Assembly: GCA_016201735.1 (NCBI GenBank)
Contig: JACQCH010000011.1
Location: 1,291-65,290, forward strand
Length of the DNA: 64,000 bases
Origin: Candidatus Omnitrophota bacterium
GTDB lineage: Bacteria > Omnitrophota > Gorgyraeia > 1-14-0-20-64-10
Direction of reading: 5' to 3'
Part shown: piece by piece, positions 2,667 to 55,074 of the stretch
Layout: each line of letters starts with the position of its first letter
Position numbering within the stretch: position 1 is the stretch's first letter
The notes under the pieces: model-generated
What the model saw: the letters and a program-made list of their open reading frames with translations, nothing else
Told to the model about the DNA's origin: nothing
Database searches by the model: none
Program-made: the position numbers and the translations under genes

Positions 2667-3476
2667 ATGAGAGCGGTCCTCTGCTGTCTGATTTTTTTAG
2701 TGGGCTTTCTGGGATGTTCAAAGAAAGCCGGCCCGCCGCCTCCTCCAATCGCCTCCTCGAATGACGCGGTTTCTGTCTTTACCCTGGTTGGGCACTCGGA
2801 CAACGGCCGCAAGAAATGGGAGGTCCAGGGGGAGACGGCCGATCTTCTGGGGGAGATCGTTCAGCTTTCTCCGGTGACGGCCAGGAGCTTCGGGGATGTG
2901 GAGGTGAAGCTCACCGCCAACCGGGGGCGGTACCAGAAGACCACCCAGGACATTTATCTCCAGAAGAATGTGGTGGTGACTACCTCCGACGGGGGGCGGC
3001 TCACGACGGAGTCGCTCCAGTGGTGGCATGAGCGGGATATGGCCCGGACCCTGGATTGGCTCAACATCAGCCGGCCCGGGATGACCGTGCTCGGGATCGG
3101 CGGTGTCGGGTTCCCGAAGCTGAAAAGGGCCCGGGTGGAACGGAAGATCACCGTGACCCTTCAAGGGGAGGAAGGGCAGACGGTGGTGACCTGCGACGGG
3201 CCGATGGAGGTCGATTATGTCCAGCACAAGGCCCGGTTCTGGCGCAACGTCCTGGTCCGGGACGCGCAGGGGTTCATTCGGTCCGATCGGCTCGATGTTC
3301 TTTTGACGTCCGAGACGAACCAGATTCAGGAAGCCCGGTTTTGGGGGCACGTGCAGATTCATCGTGGGAACCAAAGGGCCACTGCCCAGCGGGCCAATTA
3401 TTGGGGTTCACCCAAACGGACCCGCCTGACGGGCCATACACGGATGGTGATGCTTCCTCAAGACAATGAGCAGTAA
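2667..3476 (+). CDS. LptA/LptC-family (OstA-like) lipoprotein
   Basis: Signal peptide with lipobox (LGC). OstA-like repeat character. The C-terminal region resembles LptA (…TAQRANYW…TRLTGHTRMV). Overlaps lptB start by 11 nt. Confidence 0.6.
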   Translation: MRAVLCCLIFLVGFLGCSKKAGPPPPPIASSNDAVSVFTLVGHSDNGRKKWEVQGETADLLGEIVQLSPVTARSFGDVEVKLTANRGRYQKTTQDIYLQKNVVVTTSDGGRLTTESLQWWHERDMARTLDWLNISRPGMTVLGIGGVGFPKLKRARVERKITVTLQGEEGQTVVTCDGPMEVDYVQHKARFWRNVLVRDAQGFIRSDRLDVLLTSETNQIQEARFWGHVQIHRGNQRATAQRANYWGSPKRTRLTGHTRMVMLPQDNEQ

Positions 3477-40752: not shown

Positions 40753-41155
40753 GGTCGATTCCCTCATTGTTCTGCAGCCGCGGGATCCCTGGTGGATCTA
40801 CGCCTATTGGGAATTGACGCCAGCCGCCGTCGCGCGGGGCCGGGCGAGGATGGGCCCGGAACAGGAAAGTGCCGCGTGGATCCTTCGTGTTTATGAAGAA
40901 GAAACCTCCCGCTCGTTTGACATCCCCCTGGCTCCGGGTGCCGGCGATTGGACGATTCAGGTCCAGCCGGATCGGACCTGGGTTGTCGAGATCGGCTTGA
41001 GGGGCGAAAGCGGCCGGTTCGCGGCGCTGGCCCGGTCCAACCCGGCTCGGACCCCGCCGGATCGGCCCTCCGATCGGGTCGATGAGGATTGGGGTCTGAT
41101 TGAGTCGATGCCTGAGGGTTGGCCCGGCCCTTCCTCCGGCGAAAGACCCGCCTGA
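40709..41155 (+). CDS. DUF4912-family protein (partner of GH57 branching enzymes)
   Basis: Motif DSLIVLQPRDPWWIYAYWEL is typical of DUF4912. The start is uncertain because the ORF overlaps the previous ORF by 44 nt. Confidence 0.55.
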   Translation: MRKARKSKATSKPGKVDSLIVLQPRDPWWIYAYWELTPAAVARGRARMGPEQESAAWILRVYEEETSRSFDIPLAPGAGDWTIQVQPDRTWVVEIGLRGESGRFAALARSNPARTPPDRPSDRVDEDWGLIESMPEGWPGPSSGERPA

Positions 41156-42756
41156 TTTCCCCCAAAGGATTTCTCTGTCTTGTCCTTCACGGGCATCTGC
41201 CGTTTGTCCGGCATTCCGAAATTCCGGAGTGTCTGGAAGAGGACTGGTTCTTTGAAGCCCTGACAGAAGTTTACCTGCCCCTCCTGGAGATGTTCCGGCG
41301 GCTTGAGGCCGACGGCGTTGGCTTTAAGATGGCGATGGGTCTGTCTCCCACTCTGATCGCCATGATGACCGACCCCCTTTTGGAGTCCCGTTACGAGATT
41401 TATCTGGATCGGCTCGTTGGGCTTTCTGAGTCGGAGTGCCGCCGGACGGCCGGCGATCCTCAGTTCGCCCCCTTGGCCAAACTGTACCATCAGCGCTTTC
41501 TTCGGATCCGGGAATTTTGGAACCAGATCATTCATCGGGACCTGTTAGGGGTTTTTCTGGATTTAAGCCGGAGCGGGCGGCTGGAACTGATGACGACCGC
41601 AGCCACCCACGGGTTTCTTCCTTTGATGGAGGTTTGTCCGGCGGCCCTGCGGGCCCAGATTCAGGTGGGCTGCCAGAGTTTCGAGAAGGCGTTTGGGAAC
41701 CGGCCCGCCGGTTCAAACCGGCCGGCCGGGTTTTGGCTTCCGGAATGCGGGTTCGCCCCTTCGGTGGATTCGGTTTTGTCCGACGCCGGAATCCGGTACA
41801 CCTTTTTGGAAACGCATGGGATCCTCCACGGGACTCCCCGGCCGAGGTTCGGCGTCTACGCGCCGGTCCGTTCTCCATCGGGGCTGGTCCTTTTCGGCCG
41901 GGATCCGGAGACGGCGCGCCAGGTCTGGTCGGCGGCAGAGGGTTACCCGGGTGATTTCCAGTATCGGGAATTTTATCGGGACATTGGCTTCGACCTGCCG
42001 GAACAATATCTGAAGCCGTTCCGCGTCCATGGCGGCTTGAGGACGGCGACGGGAATCAAATATTTCCGGATCACCGGACGGACCGACGCCAAGGAACCTT
42101 ATCAGCCGGAAGCCGCCCTGGCGAAGGCCCGGGAGCACGCGGGCAACTTCCTGTTCAACCGGGAGCGCCAGGCGGAGCATCTTTATCGGATCATGAATCA
42201 GCCGGCCGTGGTGACGGCGATGTACGACGCGGAGCTGTTCGGCCACTGGTGGTTTGAGGGGCCGGCTTGGCTGGAGCATCTTTTCCGGGAATTCGACGCC
42301 AACCGGTCCGTTGTCCAGCTCAAGACCCCGGGGGAGATTTTAGCCCGGGCCGAACGGATTCAGACGGTGACGCCTCATCTATCCACCTGGGGCTGGAAAG
42401 GGTATAATGAGATGTGGCTTCAGGGAACCAACGCATGGATCTATCCGCATCTTCACCGGGCCGCCTGGCGGATGAACGAGTTGGTCTCCGGGAATCCGGT
42501 GGCTTCCGGGATTACCCGGCGGGCGTTGAACCAGGCCCTCCGGGAGTTGTTCCTGGCCCAATCGAGCGATTGGGCTTTTATCTTGGCGCAGAGGACGGCC
42601 TCCGGCTACGCGCAGAGCCGCCTTCAGAAGCACCTCGGGATTTTCGCACGACTCTATGAACAGATTCGATCTGGAAACATTGACTCCGCTGGGCTTACTG
42701 AGATCGAAGGGCAAGACAACCTCTTCCCCTTCCTTGACTACCGGGTCTATCGATAA
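41119..42756 (+). CDS. GH57-family 1,4-alpha-glucan branching enzyme
   Basis: LVLHGHLPFVRH N-terminal motif and overall GH57/DUF1957 architecture. 545 aa. The start is uncertain because ATG 41119 overlaps the upstream gene by 37 nt. Confidence 0.8.
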   Translation: MARPFLRRKTRLISPKGFLCLVLHGHLPFVRHSEIPECLEEDWFFEALTEVYLPLLEMFRRLEADGVGFKMAMGLSPTLIAMMTDPLLESRYEIYLDRLVGLSESECRRTAGDPQFAPLAKLYHQRFLRIREFWNQIIHRDLLGVFLDLSRSGRLELMTTAATHGFLPLMEVCPAALRAQIQVGCQSFEKAFGNRPAGSNRPAGFWLPECGFAPSVDSVLSDAGIRYTFLETHGILHGTPRPRFGVYAPVRSPSGLVLFGRDPETARQVWSAAEGYPGDFQYREFYRDIGFDLPEQYLKPFRVHGGLRTATGIKYFRITGRTDAKEPYQPEAALAKAREHAGNFLFNRERQAEHLYRIMNQPAVVTAMYDAELFGHWWFEGPAWLEHLFREFDANRSVVQLKTPGEILARAERIQTVTPHLSTWGWKGYNEMWLQGTNAWIYPHLHRAAWRMNELVSGNPVASGITRRALNQALRELFLAQSSDWAFILAQRTASGYAQSRLQKHLGIFARLYEQIRSGNIDSAGLTEIEGQDNLFPFLDYRVYR

Positions 42757-43453
42757 ATCCCGGCTCCCCCGCCATGTAGCGATCATCATGGATGGGAACG
42801 GCCGGTGGGCTTTAGGCAGGGGGTTGCCCCGGGTGATGGGGCACCGGGCCGGGATCAAGTCGGTCCGGGCCACGGCGGAGCTGGCCCGGGAGTTGGGAAT
42901 TCAGATCCTGACCCTGTACGCTTTCTCCGTCGAGAACTGGAAACGGAATCCTCGGGAGGTGGCGACCCTGATGCGGCTCTTAGACGAGTATCTCCGCCGG
43001 GAACTGCCGACCCTGATGAAGAACGAGATCCGCCTGAGCGTGCTGGGGGACATCACCGGGCTGCCCCAGGGGGTGCGGGAACATTTGACTCAAGTGATGG
43101 AGACGACGAAGGCCAACGGCCGGATGACCTTGAACCTCGCCTTAAATTACAGCGGCCGGTCCGATATCCTCCAGGCGGCCAAGCGGATCTCCGCAGAAGT
43201 CAGGGCGGGGAAATTAAAGGAAAGCGAGCTCACGGAAACCACCTTCAGCCGGTTCCTTTACACCCAAGACCAGCCGGATCCGGACCTCCTCATCCGGACC
43301 AGCGGCGAACAGCGGATCTCCAATTTCCTTCTCTGGCAGATCTCCTACACGGAGCTGTACCTCACCCCCACCCTCTGGCCGGACTTCGGCAAGCCCGATT
43401 TTCTGAAGGCGCTCGTCGACTATCAGCAGAGGGAGCGGCGCTTCGGCGCCTAG
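42656..43453 (+). CDS. uppS: undecaprenyl-diphosphate synthase (cis-isoprenyl transferase)
   Basis: RHVAIIMDGNGRWA and ENWKRxxxEV motifs. The true start is probably the TTG near 42734, because ATG 42656 overlaps the GH57 gene by 100 nt. Confidence 0.85.
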   Translation: MNRFDLETLTPLGLLRSKGKTTSSPSLTTGSIDKSRLPRHVAIIMDGNGRWALGRGLPRVMGHRAGIKSVRATAELARELGIQILTLYAFSVENWKRNPREVATLMRLLDEYLRRELPTLMKNEIRLSVLGDITGLPQGVREHLTQVMETTKANGRMTLNLALNYSGRSDILQAAKRISAEVRAGKLKESELTETTFSRFLYTQDQPDPDLLIRTSGEQRISNFLLWQISYTELYLTPTLWPDFGKPDFLKALVDYQQRERRFGA

Positions 43454-43727
43454 TGCACCCGGCAGGGAGTTTTCAGCGGGCTGGAAGCCTAGATGTGCGG
43501 CCAGTTCGAGGCGCGACGACGAAGGCGTACTCCCTGGAGTACGTCGAGGAGGAGCAACGATGAAATGGCCGCACAGATGGGCTTCCCCGAAGGGGCTGGG
43601 CGATTTTGGGCTGCGACTGCGTCGCTCGATCGGGCGCGTACCGCTGCGGGTACGCATCCCTCCTCGCTCCTTGTCTCGCTCCAAAATCGCCTCAGCCAAC
43701 CCGCTGAAAACTCCCTGCCGGGTGCAC
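43453..43727 (+). repeat. MITE-like element: 275 bp bounded by 28-nt perfect (32-nt, 1 mismatch) terminal inverted repeats, with internal palindromes
   Basis: gtgcacccggcagggagttttcagcgggctgg at 43453-43484 is the reverse complement of 43696-43727. Internal hairpins include cgtactcc/ggagtacg and gcgac tgc gtcgc. The element exactly fills the uppS-cdsA spacer. Confidence 0.55.
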
Positions 43728-43731
43728 TGAT

Positions 43732-44562
43732 ATGTCGAATCTGCTCCCCCGGCTGATCACAGGGGTGGCTCTTGTCGGGCTGGCGGTCTGGACCCTGTTC
43801 GGGGCCCCTCTTTGGGTTTTCGCCTTCGTGACGACTGGCTTCATCCTGCTGGGGCTGAACGAGTTCTTTTCCCTCGTCGAACTTAAAGGGATCGTCATTG
43901 AGCGGTTGATCGGCCTTTCGATCGGATTGTTGATTCCCCTCTCCATTTATTGGGAGTTTGAACCGACGAAAGGATGGGAGTTGTTTTTCATGGCCCTGGT
44001 TTTTCTCGCCCTTTTTCTGCTGCAGCTGGGCAGGAAGGACAGCTCCCAAGCGATCCAAGGAATTTCCACCGCTCTCTTTGGAATTTTCTATGTCTCCTGG
44101 TGCTTCAGTTTCCTGATCAAGCTGCGGCTGACCACGGGCCCCATGGTTCCCGACGGCCGGTGGCTTGTGGCGTACCTGCTTCTTGTGACCAAAGGAGGAG
44201 ATGTGGGGGGCTATGCGGTCGGGTCGATCTTCGGCCGGCACACCTTGATCCGCCGGATCTCCCCCTCGAAAACCTGGGAGGGGATGATCGGCGGCTTAGT
44301 CTTTTCCCTGGCGGCCGCTTTCTTGATGAAGCCGGCCTTCCCGTCGATTCCCTTAGGGCATCTGCTGGTTCTTGGGCTTCTGCTGGGGATCTTGGGCCAA
44401 CTCGGGGATCTCTCGGAATCGATGATCAAGCGGGATTGCCAGGTGAAGGATTCCGGGAGGATTCTTCCCGGGATGGGTGGGATCCTTGATGTGATCGACT
44501 CTCTTCTCTTCGCTTCGCCAATCTGCTATTTTTATGTCCGGAAGTTTTTCATTGGATCGTAG
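43732..44562 (+). CDS. cdsA: phosphatidate cytidylyltransferase
   Basis: Multi-TM protein. C-terminal CTP-transferase signature (…SMIKRDCQVKDSGRILPGMGGILDVIDSLLFA). Confidence 0.9.
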   Translation: MSNLLPRLITGVALVGLAVWTLFGAPLWVFAFVTTGFILLGLNEFFSLVELKGIVIERLIGLSIGLLIPLSIYWEFEPTKGWELFFMALVFLALFLLQLGRKDSSQAIQGISTALFGIFYVSWCFSFLIKLRLTTGPMVPDGRWLVAYLLLVTKGGDVGGYAVGSIFGRHTLIRRISPSKTWEGMIGGLVFSLAAAFLMKPAFPSIPLGHLLVLGLLLGILGQLGDLSESMIKRDCQVKDSGRILPGMGGILDVIDSLLFASPICYFYVRKFFIGS

Positions 44563-51833: not shown

Positions 51834-53972
51834 TTGGCAATGCGCGTATTTGAACTGGCAAAAAAACTAGGGGTTTCCACGAAGGAGCTGACGGCCCTTT
51901 TGGGCCGGCTTCATATCAAGGCTCCGACTCACATGAGCAGTCTGGATGAGGGGGCGGTGGCGAAAATAAAAGCCGCTCTCAAGCCCGCGAAACCTGCGTC
52001 TCCTGCGCGGAAAAAATCGGTGATGCCAGTGAGTAAGCCGGTTCCTCCGGTGAGCAAACCGGCCCCGCCGGTGAGCAGGCCGGCCCCGCCGGTGAGCAGG
52101 CCGGCCCCGCCGGTTGAAAAACCAGTTTCGCCCCCGGCTCCTCCTGTTTTGCAAGAACCAATTCCCGCAGCTAAACTGGCTGCACCGGTCGTTGTCGCGG
52201 CAGAACCACCCCCTTTAAAGCCTCTCTCCATCAAAGTTCCCCTGACAGTGAAAGAATTGGCCGATAAACTTGCCGTTTCCCCCAGCGACTGCATTAAACG
52301 GCTGCTCGGCATGAAGATCTTGGCCACCATGAATCAGCTCCTCACCGAAGAGACCGTTGAAAAACTTTTGAAGCCGTACGGCTACCAGTACCAGCGGATG
52401 CCGACGGTTGAAGAGCAGGTTGAAGCGATCCACGAGGTGGAGGACCGGGCGAAGCTGAAACCCCGCCCCCCCGTAGTGACCTTCATGGGCCACGTGGATC
52501 ATGGAAAGACTTCCCTCTTGGACGCGATCCGGAAAACCAAAGTGGTCGAAGGGGAATCCGGCGGGATCACCCAACACATTGGCGCTTACCGGGTGATCCT
52601 GCCCAAAGGGGTGATCACCTTTCTGGACACGCCCGGCCACGAGGCCTTCACCGCGATGCGGGCCCGAGGGGCTCACGTCACCGACGTGGTTGTCCTCGTC
52701 GTGGCGGCAGACGATGGGGTGATGCCTCAGACCATCGAGGCGATCGATCACGCGAAGGCGGCCGAGGCCACCATCGTCGTTGCCTTAAACAAGATCGACA
52801 AACCCTCCGCCAACCCGGACAAGGTAAAGAAACAGCTCATGGAGCTGGGCCTTAACCCCGAAGAGTGGGGCGGCAAGACGATCATCGTTCCGGTCTCGGC
52901 CAAGACCGGCGACGGCATTGATCAGCTTTTGGAGATGCTTCTCCTGGAAGCGGAGGTTCTGGAATTGAAGGCGGACCCAACCAAACCGGCCCGGGGGATT
53001 GTGCTGGAGGCGGAGCTTTCCAAGGGGGGAGGGCCTGTGGGCCACATGCTGGTCCAGACCGGCACCCTCCATGTTGGAGATGTTTTCGTATCGGGCCCTT
53101 ATTGGGGCCGGGTCCGGGCGATGCTCGACGAGCGGGGCCATCGGTTGAAGGAAGCGAACCCCTCCACCCCGATCGAGTTGTTGGGCCTCAACGGGGTTCC
53201 CAAACCGGGCGAGTCGTTCCTTGTGGTTCCGGATGAGCGGCAGGCCAGGGAGATCGTCTCCCGCCGTCAGGAAGAGCTGCGAGGGGCGACCAAACCGACT
53301 TCCCGGCGGGTGATTACCTTGGAAGAGTTCCACCAGCAGTTAAAGGTTGGAAGGGTCAAAAGTTTGAACCTGATCTTGAAGGCCGACGTGCAGGGATCGC
53401 TCGAGGCGTTGCGCGATTCCCTGCTTAAAATTTCCTCCTCCGAGGAAGTAAGCATGAAGATCATGCACGCCGGGGTGGGAGATGTGACGGAACCAGATGT
53501 CCTGCTGGCCGAAGCTTCGGACGCGGTGGTGATCGGTTTTCATGTGGGGATGACGCCGGAGGCGGAGGTCCTGGCCAAACTGGAAAAAGTCGACGTCCGC
53601 CTGTACCGGATCATTTATGAAGCGGTGGCGGATATCCGGGCGGCCCTGGAGGGCCTGCTGGAACCGCGCCTCGTCGAAACGGTCCTTGGAAAGGCGAAGG
53701 TCCTTGAGGTCTTTAAGGTTTCCAAGTCAGGCACCATCGCCGGCTCTCAGGTCCTCAAAGGAAAGATCGTTCGGGGCGCCATGGCCCGGGTCTTCCGGGG
53801 CGATGAGAAATTGTTCCAGGGAAAGATCTCCTCCCTCAAGCGATTCAAGGAGGATGTCCGGGAGGTGGCCGAAGGCCTTCAGTGTGGGATCAGCGTGTCG
53901 GGCTGGACCGATTTCCAGCCGGAGGACTTGATCGAAGCGGTCGACGTGCAGTCGGTCGCTCAGAAATTATGA
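51834..53972 (+). CDS. infB: translation initiation factor IF-2
   Basis: G domain (GHVDHGKTSLLD, DTPGHEAF, NKID). Pro-rich N-terminal repeat region. Start is TTG 51834 or ATG 51840. Confidence 0.95.
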   Translation: MAMRVFELAKKLGVSTKELTALLGRLHIKAPTHMSSLDEGAVAKIKAALKPAKPASPARKKSVMPVSKPVPPVSKPAPPVSRPAPPVSRPAPPVEKPVSPPAPPVLQEPIPAAKLAAPVVVAAEPPPLKPLSIKVPLTVKELADKLAVSPSDCIKRLLGMKILATMNQLLTEETVEKLLKPYGYQYQRMPTVEEQVEAIHEVEDRAKLKPRPPVVTFMGHVDHGKTSLLDAIRKTKVVEGESGGITQHIGAYRVILPKGVITFLDTPGHEAFTAMRARGAHVTDVVVLVVAADDGVMPQTIEAIDHAKAAEATIVVALNKIDKPSANPDKVKKQLMELGLNPEEWGGKTIIVPVSAKTGDGIDQLLEMLLLEAEVLELKADPTKPARGIVLEAELSKGGGPVGHMLVQTGTLHVGDVFVSGPYWGRVRAMLDERGHRLKEANPSTPIELLGLNGVPKPGESFLVVPDERQAREIVSRRQEELRGATKPTSRRVITLEEFHQQLKVGRVKSLNLILKADVQGSLEALRDSLLKISSSEEVSMKIMHAGVGDVTEPDVLLAEASDAVVIGFHVGMTPEAEVLAKLEKVDVRLYRIIYEAVADIRAALEGLLEPRLVETVLGKAKVLEVFKVSKSGTIAGSQVLKGKIVRGAMARVFRGDEKLFQGKISSLKRFKEDVREVAEGLQCGISVSGWTDFQPEDLIEAVDVQSVAQKL
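52029..52112 (+). repeat. four tandem copies of a 21-nt unit (gtgagcaggccggccccgccg) encoding the VS(K/R)PAPP repeat of the IF-2 N-terminus
   Basis: Direct tandem repetition read from the sequence. It is in-frame and coding. Confidence 0.8.
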
Positions 53973-54103
53973 CCCCGCCCCTCCGTTCCTGCGCTGTCGA
54001 ACAGCGCAGGACAACCAAGATGGAGTTCGACAGCGCTTGTGCCGAGCGATTGCTCGGCACCATGAAAGGCCGTTCGGCCTTTCATGGGAATGGAGGGGCG
54101 GGG
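53973..54103 (+). promoter_or_regulatory. nested multi-hairpin structure in the infB-trpS spacer whose 12-bp outer stem sequesters the trpS RBS
   Basis: ccccgcccctcc (53973-53984) is the exact reverse complement of ggaggggcgggg (54092-54103), and the latter contains the GGAGG RBS for the GTG start at 54103. Three internal hairpins are present, plus alternative pairing between gcgctgtcgaac and gttcgacagcgc. Confidence 0.45.
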
Positions 54104-55074
54104 TGAGACAGCGGGTTCTCTCCGGAATGCGGCCTACCGGCCCCCTGCACCTGGGCCATCTGGTCGGCGCCTTAAAGAATTGGGTTCTCCTTCAGGAACA
54201 GTACGACTGTTTCTTCATGGTGGCCGACTGGCACGCCCTGATGAGCGAGTACGAACATCCGGAAGCGATCGCCCGCAATACCCGGCAGATGGTCGCCGAT
54301 TGGATCGCCGCCGGGATCGATCCCCGGCGCTCGGTGATCTTCCGCCAGTCGGACGTTCCGGAACATCTGGAACTTTACATGGTCCTCTCCATCCTGGCTC
54401 CACTGGGTTGGGTGGAGCGGGTCCCGACCTACAAGGAGCAGCTTCGGGAGGTGACCGGCCGGGACCTGGCGACGTACGGTTTCTTAGGATACCCGGTCCT
54501 CCAGGCGGCGGACATCCTGCTTTACAAGGCGAATGCCGTGCCGGTCGGGGAGGATCAGATTCCCCACTTGGAGCTGACGCGGGAGATCGTCCGGCGGTTC
54601 AAGTTTTTGTACCAGGCGGATATCTTTCCGGAGCCGAAACCACTGTTAACGAAGGAAGCGAAGCTTTTGGGAATCGACGGCCGGAAGATGTCCAAGTCGT
54701 ACGATAATTTCATTGCTCTCTCGGAAGGCCCGGATGAGATCCGGAAGAAGACGCAGAAAATGTTCACCGACCCCAAGCGGATCAAGATGACGGACCCGGG
54801 ACACCCGGAAACCTGCAACGTCTGCCATTACTGGGAGGTGTTCGTCCCCGAGCAGGCCCCCAAGGTTTGGGAGGAGTGCCGGACCTCCAAGCGGGGCTGC
54901 ACCCAGAACAAGCAGGAGCTGGCCGAAGCTCTCATTCGGATCGCGGAGAAATTCCGGAGCTCCCCGGTGGACTCGAACCCGGTGGACAAGATTCTCGCGG
55001 AAGGGGCCGAGCGGGCGACCAAGGTAGCTCGGGCCACGATGCAGGAGGTCAAGAAGGCGGTCGGCCTTTCATGA
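54103..55074 (+). CDS. trpS: tryptophanyl-tRNA synthetase
   Basis: Class I aaRS with HIGH-type motif (TGPLHLGHLVG) and KMSKS. GTG 54103 gives an N-terminus collinear with bacterial TrpS (MRQRVLSGMRPTG…). Confidence 0.9.
   Translation: MRQRVLSGMRPTGPLHLGHLVGALKNWVLLQEQYDCFFMVADWHALMSEYEHPEAIARNTRQMVADWIAAGIDPRRSVIFRQSDVPEHLELYMVLSILAPLGWVERVPTYKEQLREVTGRDLATYGFLGYPVLQAADILLYKANAVPVGEDQIPHLELTREIVRRFKFLYQADIFPEPKPLLTKEAKLLGIDGRKMSKSYDNFIALSEGPDEIRKKTQKMFTDPKRIKMTDPGHPETCNVCHYWEVFVPEQAPKVWEECRTSKRGCTQNKQELAEALIRIAEKFRSSPVDSNPVDKILAEGAERATKVARATMQEVKKAVGLS

Follow-up and report, generated by a model that had tools for sequence, protein, structure and literature searches.

A spacer-filling unit in an Omnitrophota genome is probably one copy of a dispersed MITE family

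The spacer between uppS and cdsA in the genome of a Candidatus Omnitrophota bacterium holds a 275-bp unit that is, with good confidence, one copy of a previously undescribed family of MITEs (miniature transposable elements with inverted repeats) present in Candidatus Omnitrophota and in at least one NPL-UPA2 genome. The window analyzed here is a 64,000-nucleotide stretch of contig JACQCH010000011.1 (assembly GCA_016201735.1), and positions refer to it unless another locus is named. In the register of the family the unit extends on the plus strand from 43453 to 43727, from the first G of one GTGCAC to the last C of another, as defined by its inverted repeat and by alignment with 23 other copies, and it belongs to the GTG-type subfamily. 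It occupies the uppS-cdsA spacer, with the uppS stop codon TAG at 43451-43453 and the ATG of cdsA at 43732. A repeat finder places the terminal arms at 43452-43484 and 43696-43728 (33 nt, 97% complementary, 211 nt apart), and the 28-mer GTGCACCCGGCAGGGAGTTTTCAGCGGG is present at exactly two places in the window, one on each strand, with no occurrence expected from 100 shuffles. The exact filling of the spacer, the long terminal inverted repeats and two internal palindromes, CGTACTCC/GGAGTACG at 43526-43543 and GCGAC-TGC-GTCGC at 43613-43625, had all been claimed in a preliminary description of the window and were found as described.

Comparison of the six-frame translation with a protein collection yielded two gene calls running through homologous copies (L007 and L008), and alignment of these with the window copy revealed a conserved core. 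A 21-mer from a near-invariant block of this core retrieved 29 metagenome loci, several of whose contigs begin or end within the element. A peptide profile built from one stop-poor frame matched 46 further gene calls (ENA, JGI, NCBI, Logan), predicted 'proteins' that are element copies or gene-element fusions, one of them from Unc8, a candidate division NPL-UPA2 bacterium with a 1-Mb genome; these 46 matches, like the two in-gene copies, came through protein searches and are biased toward open frames. The alignment comprises no fewer than 24 distinct copies of full length (263-321 bp, modal length 273 bp). Together with the 46 gene-call matches, these occupy unrelated loci in Omnitrophota and NPL-UPA2 metagenome-assembled genomes (MAGs) and in metagenomes. 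The nearest homologs of the window copy are L007 (91% identity) and L024 (89%), both at loci unrelated to uppS-cdsA; identity falls to 76-78% in a second GC-rich group and to 58-68% among the AT-richer GGGG-type copies. Several metagenomes each yield two to five element-bearing contigs, and near-identical copies (92-97%) are found at different loci within one metagenome. In the Logan assemblies SRR12113409 and SRR12113410, which come from the same strain, contigs are interrupted at identical positions, L004 ending at 43543 and L001/L002 beginning at 43671, on either side of the conserved core, and JGI contigs L016, L017, L019 and L034 likewise start inside a copy. The Logan breaks may arise because other copies in the sample carry the same repeat. 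Our literature search found no report of MITEs in Omnitrophota or NPL-UPA2, and the paper on the Unc8 genome does not mention repeats.

Shortened copies also occur. An internally deleted copy of 189-192 bp (L018, 1646-1837) has lost most of domain A, the first internal domain of the fold described below, and kept both arms. In Unc8, a truncated copy consisting of one arm and about 20 nt of core lies between two genes (L038, 16491-16540 of NDHY01000004.1). The GGAGG of this remnant precedes by 9 nt the start codon (ATG) of a phosphoribosyltransferase gene downstream, a position at which it may serve as a co-opted ribosome-binding site.

Relatives of the source organism lack the unit at this junction. 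Judged by its UppS matches, the best of which are in Candidatus Omnitrophica, the source organism belongs to Candidatus Omnitrophota. The two genes overlap by 11 nt in a relative with 86% UppS identity and are separated by 3 nt in one with 87%, by 4 nt in L003 (80%; GGCGCC-TGA-GGCG-ATG) and by 28 nt in L006 (87%; 3367-3394). With -11, 3, 4 and 28 nt between the genes in these four relatives, the closest by UppS (80-87% identity), the comparisons show that the 275-bp unit was inserted at the junction of the uppS stop and the cdsA start. The 28-nt spacer of L006 matches the left arm of the window copy at 18 of 24 positions (shuffle P=1.5e-4) and is probably a solo-arm remnant of an earlier copy, which would place an invasion of this junction before the two lineages diverged or imply two separate hits. 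Across uppS, element and cdsA the window reads GGCGCC-TA / GTGCAC...GTGCAC / TGA-T-ATG. The left flanking triplet is CTA (43450-43452), whose TA together with the first G of the element forms the present uppS stop codon, and the right flanking triplet is TGA (43728-43730), 1 nt before the cdsA ATG. Compared with the L003 junction, the right-flank TGA is probably the ancestral uppS stop codon and the target site. The close TGA..ATG arrangement of the relatives is thus still found to the right of the element, with the new uppS TAG formed from TA and the G of the element.

The family begins with G-G/T-G and ends with the complement, and its arms measure 29-34 nt in nearly all full-length copies, a few scoring as shorter matches. 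Flanking 3-mers are identical in 8 of 23 copies (four TTA, two ATA, one TAA and one TAG) and match at no fewer than two positions in 16 of 23, and random re-pairing of flanks gave eight perfect pairs in only 0.04% of trials (permutation P=0.0004). As read from these flanks, the family makes 3-bp duplications of TTA/TAA/TAG/ATA-type targets; at L038 both flanks are TAA, the left one being the stop codon of topA. The family combines terminal inverted repeats, small size without a transposase gene, many copies at unrelated loci, target duplication at the family level and an empty site in relatives. Copies at unrelated loci together with the 3-bp duplications support the non-autonomous MITE-like element of the preliminary description, and the short junctions of close relatives show that it was inserted. 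A single genomic copy and a spacer kept in relatives had been named there as the opposite outcome. The spacer is missing from the relatives, and single metagenomes contain several copies of the family, with one copy in the 64 kb of the window.

The element would be moved by a DDE transposase acting in trans. Transposases of the IS5 family (IS1031, ISL2 and IS427 groups) and of PIF/Harbinger produce 3-bp T-N-A duplications and have G-rich termini, and they are candidates because both features fit the present family.

Several observations weigh against a transposase-mobilized MITE family and against the role at gene junctions proposed below. Neither a second copy nor an arm remnant was found in the 64-kb window by blastn-short, a repeat scan or a mismatch-tolerant sliding scan, and an exact search of 185,579 species genomes with an arm 20-mer gave a single match, of 24 nt, in an alphaproteobacterial MAG. 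The flanks of the window copy do not match (CTA and TGA), so its duplication has to be assumed degraded, for example by loss of one nucleotide (TGA-G to TA-G). GTG-type duplications are weak in general, one of eight being perfect and two matching at 2/3 positions. No transposase, and no longer element with the same ends or extra arm matches, was found in any fetched locus. The core is fixed while the termini drift, the reverse of ordinary MITEs, whose termini are conserved while the interior drifts, and the transposase model leaves this unexplained. The GTG-type copies are related, so that the counts of 7/7 for orientation and 5/7 for open frames reported below do not represent independent events. 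The in-gene copies L007 and L008 were found through a protein database, a bias toward open frames, and the proposed relay of translation is drawn from sequence layout.

The single genome match (L005, 6973-6996 of CAVZBS010000003.1) is an exact 24-nt match to the right arm of the window copy. It is intergenic, has neither partner arm nor core and could be due to chance, a remnant or a mis-binned contig. Viral contigs gave no match to the arm pattern or to the core pattern.

The element is predicted to fold into a conserved multi-hairpin structure on either strand

Both strands of the element give exceptionally stable predicted RNA folds, with energies of -183 kcal/mol for the plus strand (z -11.7) and -177 kcal/mol for the minus strand (z -11.0), and no shuffled sequence was equally stable in either case. 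The predicted fold consists of a 30-bp closing helix, a 104-nt domain A, a mini-hairpin and a 104-nt domain B with two small hairpins. On the plus strand, the left arm (43453-43484) and the right arm (43696-43727, with one C:A mismatch) form the 5' and 3' strands of the closing helix P1. Domain A (43483-43586) comprises, in the minimum-free-energy fold, helices 43483-91/43578-86 and 43494-43508/43561-75 and a tip hairpin 43524-32/43537-45, and it includes the conserved stretches AGGCGCGACGA and GAGGAGCAACG. The central mini-hairpin CCCC-GAA-GGGG (helix 5, 43585-43595) separates it from domain B (helices 6-8, 43594-43697), which is built from a main helix 43594-43611/43678-97 and hairpins 43613-17/43621-25 and 43636-42/43649-55. 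The near-invariant 30-nt block TCGCTCCTTGTCTCGCTCCAAAATCGCCTC, with its direct repeat of TCGCTCC, occupies 43664-43693.

This fold is supported across the family. In total, 88 pairs were assessed, with 90.4% of cells paired compared to 35-45% when the partners are slid, and the covariation score is 0.47 compared to 0.07-0.10 for the slid controls. Double-sided changes are found in 62 of the 88 pairs, internal helices among them; the arms show them in 28 of 30 pairs and helix 3 of domain A has compensatory changes in 15 of 17. The arms are nearly wholly different between subfamilies (GTGCACCCGGCAGGGAG..., GTGTTGCCAACCGTGAG..., GGGGTTGCTAAACAATAAA...), and most copies preserve arm length and near-perfect complementarity despite this drift. 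The interior retains the 30-nt block and other fixed stretches, with extra hairpins added at three different points (L007, L011 and L014/L023). The two strands carry similar numbers of G-U pairs, 23 and 17 in the GTG-type and 78 and 93 in the GGGG-type, indicating no strand asymmetry, and the two subfamilies lie in opposite orientations relative to neighboring genes. A strand-symmetric multi-hairpin fold would most simply be needed either for the element's own propagation, being recognized as folded DNA, or for compact folding in whichever strand is transcribed, rather than mark a strand-specific RNA gene.

The family could be a mobile element other than an ordinary decayed insertion sequence, with the conserved asymmetric multi-hairpin core as its functional part. 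The core would be either a folded nucleic acid needed in cis by an unrecognized mobilization system or a translatable spacer that restores translational coupling on landing between a stop and a start codon. We consider this joint proposal rather unlikely. If the core were needed in cis by the mobilization system, the arms would need only to pair while the core sequence stays fixed.

The same features bear on the alternative that the conserved core is a functional structured RNA, that is, a noncoding RNA gene or a cis-acting module, in which the arms act mainly as a stem for closure or processing, such as an RNase III site, while movement is secondary or RNA-mediated. The near-invariant block and conserved unpaired stretches beside helices rich in compensatory changes, the conservation of the core while the arms drift, the extreme stability of the fold and the hairpins added at three points, reminiscent of expansion segments of structured RNAs, would all fit such a function. 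Against it, Rfam 15 gave no match for the window at the gathering score, a permissive scan (E up to 10) returned only a spurious MIR918 hit at 30.8 bits compared to a gathering score of 268 bits, and copies L038 and L021 were not matched either, leaving all three copies without an Rfam match even at E up to 10. G-U pairs favor neither strand, so that none is marked as the RNA, and the subfamilies are oppositely oriented to the flanking genes. A scan within the element found no promoter-like or terminator-like signals. In addition, the unit is absent at uppS-cdsA in close relatives, truncated remnants are tolerated and the target duplications indicate insertion at the DNA level. The large structured RNA offered as an option in the preliminary description may still apply as an added property: the internal helices covary, but there is neither strand asymmetry nor an Rfam match, and we regard an RNA gene or module as unlikely. 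A ribozyme, intron or retron was rejected, as there is no Rfam signal, no reverse transcriptase lies nearby and copies occur in both orientations.

Movement as single-stranded DNA by an HUH/Y1 transposase appears quite improbable. Under this model the unit would be a palindrome-associated element (IS200/IS605-type PATE or REP/RAYT-like), the fold its recognition structure and the T-T-A / T-A-A flank a target motif instead of a duplication. The strand-symmetric conservation of the hairpins, a core more conserved than the termini and the one consistent flank of the GTG-type (right flank TAA, TAG or TGA in 8/8 copies, left flank variable) are in line with it. However, IS200/IS605-type PATE and REP/RAYT-like families are not known to have long terminal inverted repeats or to make duplications, whereas arms here are 29-34 bp and GGGG-type flanks share the same triplet far above chance. 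REP units measure 20-40 nt compared to about 273 nt here, and no Y1 transposase gene was seen beside any copy among the neighbors covered by three Pfam listings. A unit of about 273 bp with 3-bp duplications does not correspond to a REP/BIME (RAYT-associated) repeat, nor do long arms and matching GGGG-type flanks correspond to an IS200/IS605 derivative, where the one-sided flank of the GTG-type leaves some doubt.

A local and immobile origin of the spacer, by inverted duplication or as a lineage-specific regulatory hairpin at uppS-cdsA, could draw on the single copy in the 64-kb window and on the resemblance of the L006 spacer to one arm but is refuted for practical purposes by homologous copies at unrelated loci, namely 87-91% identical copies, arms included, beside unrelated genes in other assemblies (L007, L024) and dozens more elsewhere.

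GTG-type copies sit at stop/start junctions and may relay translation

Copies from unbiased sampling are mostly intergenic and located at gene junctions. All seven intergenic GTG-type copies lie in sense orientation, and their right-flank stop codon abuts the start of the downstream gene (73-543 aa). The junction is TAATG at L013 (a 179-aa ORF, open reading frame), L018 (an LpxD-like gene), L024 (a 543-aa protein, with the copy downstream of a geranylgeranyl-reductase-like gene) and L035 (a membrane protein), TAGTG at L020 (a sigma factor), TAAATG at L021 (infA) and TGAtATG in the window (cdsA).

The lengths of 16 of the 24 copies are divisible by three (267, 270, 273, 276, 297 and 303). Plus frame 0 is stop-free in 5/7 GTG-type copies, and minus frame 1 is stop-free in 6 of 17 GGGG-type copies compared to 0-1 in other frames; in each subfamily the stop-poor frame lies on the strand matching the usual direction of the flanking genes. 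Five GTG-type copies (four GTGTTGCC-type copies and L007) have no stop in frame from the first codon of the element, and in the four GTGTTGCC-type copies this codon is GTG and the frame closes at the right-flank stop codon. In the window copy and in L024, which have one extra base in common, the path instead runs through two overlapping ORFs. In the window, both on the plus strand, ORF-a (43453-43563) consists of GTG and 35 codons followed by TGA (43561-43563), and ORF-b (43560-43730) of ATG and 55 codons followed by the right-flank TGA. ORF-a shares bases with both neighboring frames, its GTG with the uppS TAG (TAGTG) and its TGA with the ORF-b ATG (ATGA). A Shine-Dalgarno-like sequence, GAGGAGGAG (43546-43554, within the conserved GAGGAGCAACG), places its GGAGG core (43548-43552) 7 nt before the ATG at 43560. 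The ORF-b frame continues across the right arm, and its stop codon lies 1 nt ahead of the cdsA ATG.

We considered and discarded a conserved small protein, since the frame changes from one subfamily to the other through indels and no codon periodicity is seen in the conserved block. The preliminary description had seen no credible coding capacity, which holds for a conserved protein and falls short of the two nearly stop-free plus-strand frames and the 56-codon ORF preceded by GGAGG.

The cdsA gene of the relatives starts 3-4 nt after the uppS stop and lacks an obvious Shine-Dalgarno sequence, and it therefore probably depends on translational coupling. In the window, the 4 nt between the element and cdsA (CTP_transf_1; 43732-44562, plus strand) offer no Shine-Dalgarno sequence for this gene. 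ORF-a may be translated, and ribosomes could then pass from uppS to ORF-a and on to ORF-b, stop 1 nt short of the cdsA ATG and re-initiate at that codon. Insertion would be tolerated in that the duplicated target is itself a stop codon, uppS keeping a TAG while TGA-n-ATG is rebuilt before cdsA, and in that the element supplies stop-poor frames and its own Shine-Dalgarno sequence, making it harmless inside operons. As suggested by this layout, the element may survive at such junctions since translation can be relayed through it.

Two copies lie within genes that otherwise look normal. At L007 (1121-1441) a beta-lactamase-like protein carries the element as an in-frame insert of 107 codons directly behind its signal peptide, and at L008 (5915-6187), in an Omnitrophota MAG, an in-frame insert of 91 codons separates domains II and III in a CysN-like GTPase, whose CysN homologues (406-419 aa) all lack the 91-aa insert. 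Public gene calls P0133, P0134, P0148 and P0168 join YidD, cupin, hydrolase and MGMT proteins to 60-90 element-derived residues. These fusions are artefacts of annotation, though some may be true terminal extensions, and stem from the open frame of the family.

The upstream host gene, uppS, encodes an isoprenyl transferase (PF01255; 42656-43453, plus strand). Its longest ORF (265 aa) overlaps the upstream GH57 gene (41119-42756) by about 100 nt. Public gene calls of the same sequence give a 221-aa uppS, so the start is probably further downstream than that of the longest ORF.

Comparison with known repeat families

Rickettsia palindromic elements (RPE), reportedly described by Ogata and colleagues in 2000, are said to be hairpin-forming repeats inserted in frame in protein-coding genes. 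They share with the present family a palindromic, hairpin-forming unit of about 100-300 bp, a frame-compatible unit length and a similar coexistence with coding sequence, and the two in-gene copies found here (91 and 107 codons) may parallel their insertion in a fixed stop-free frame. Their hosts belong to a different phylum, and the present family differs in its mostly intergenic copies, clear 3-bp duplications and long terminal arms. MITEs of the IS5 family (IS1031, ISL2, IS427) and PIF/Harbinger-Tourist type resemble it in their 2-3-bp T-N-A / T-W-A duplications and G-rich termini, a likeness of duplication length and target only, with no transposase found here. The QMITE1 element of Coxiella burnetii is a MITE of 300-400 bp with direct repeats of 2-3 nt that often overlaps annotated ORFs and encodes basic peptides (PMC5896051). 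Neither QMITE1 nor the present family has its own transposase, and both coexist with coding sequence. In contrast, QMITE1 carries sigma-70 promoters and yields small RNAs (PMC5896051), while no promoter-like site was found here; the junction-precise sense placement of the present family is not described for QMITE1, and there is no sign of homology. Correia elements (NEMIS) of Neisseria and the ERIC/RU repeats of enterobacteria are likewise small, non-autonomous and bounded by inverted repeats, lie in transcribed intergenic regions, form long hairpins in mRNA and sometimes carry ORFs or occur within genes (PMC2229807, PMC3184786, PMC2759123). Correia elements duplicate TA, are about 100-155 bp long and have conserved ends, whereas the present family duplicates 3 bp, measures about 273 bp and has drifting ends around a conserved interior.

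A second, unrelated palindromic element fills another spacer of the window (53973-54103). It has 18-nt arms (53972-53989 / 54087-54104) and three internal hairpins, and its predicted RNA fold has an energy of -102 kcal/mol (z -13.2). TGA is found on both sides, the left one being the stop codon of a 712-aa ORF and the right one overlapping the likely GTG start of a trpS-like gene. From its sequence, this element looks like another MITE-like family targeting stop-codon triplets.

Implications for compact genomes

The conserved structured core with drifting arms and the placement at stop/start junctions are the two points that go beyond an ordinary MITE family. In practical terms, the family splits short-read assemblies at its conserved core, leads gene callers to extend or fuse genes (46 such predicted proteins) and can be used as a lineage marker. 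Genomes of Omnitrophota and related candidate phyla are small and tightly packed, and hardly any work has addressed the mobile DNA in them. The family shows a route by which a selfish element can persist in such compact genomes, through stop-codon-like targets that leave the flanking stop and start signals in place and a frame that is open to translation. If the relay of translation is true, the element would be a natural insertion that carries its own translational-coupling device, and if the core acts as a translatable spacer, the family would represent a selfish element specialized for the overlapping gene junctions of very compact genomes.

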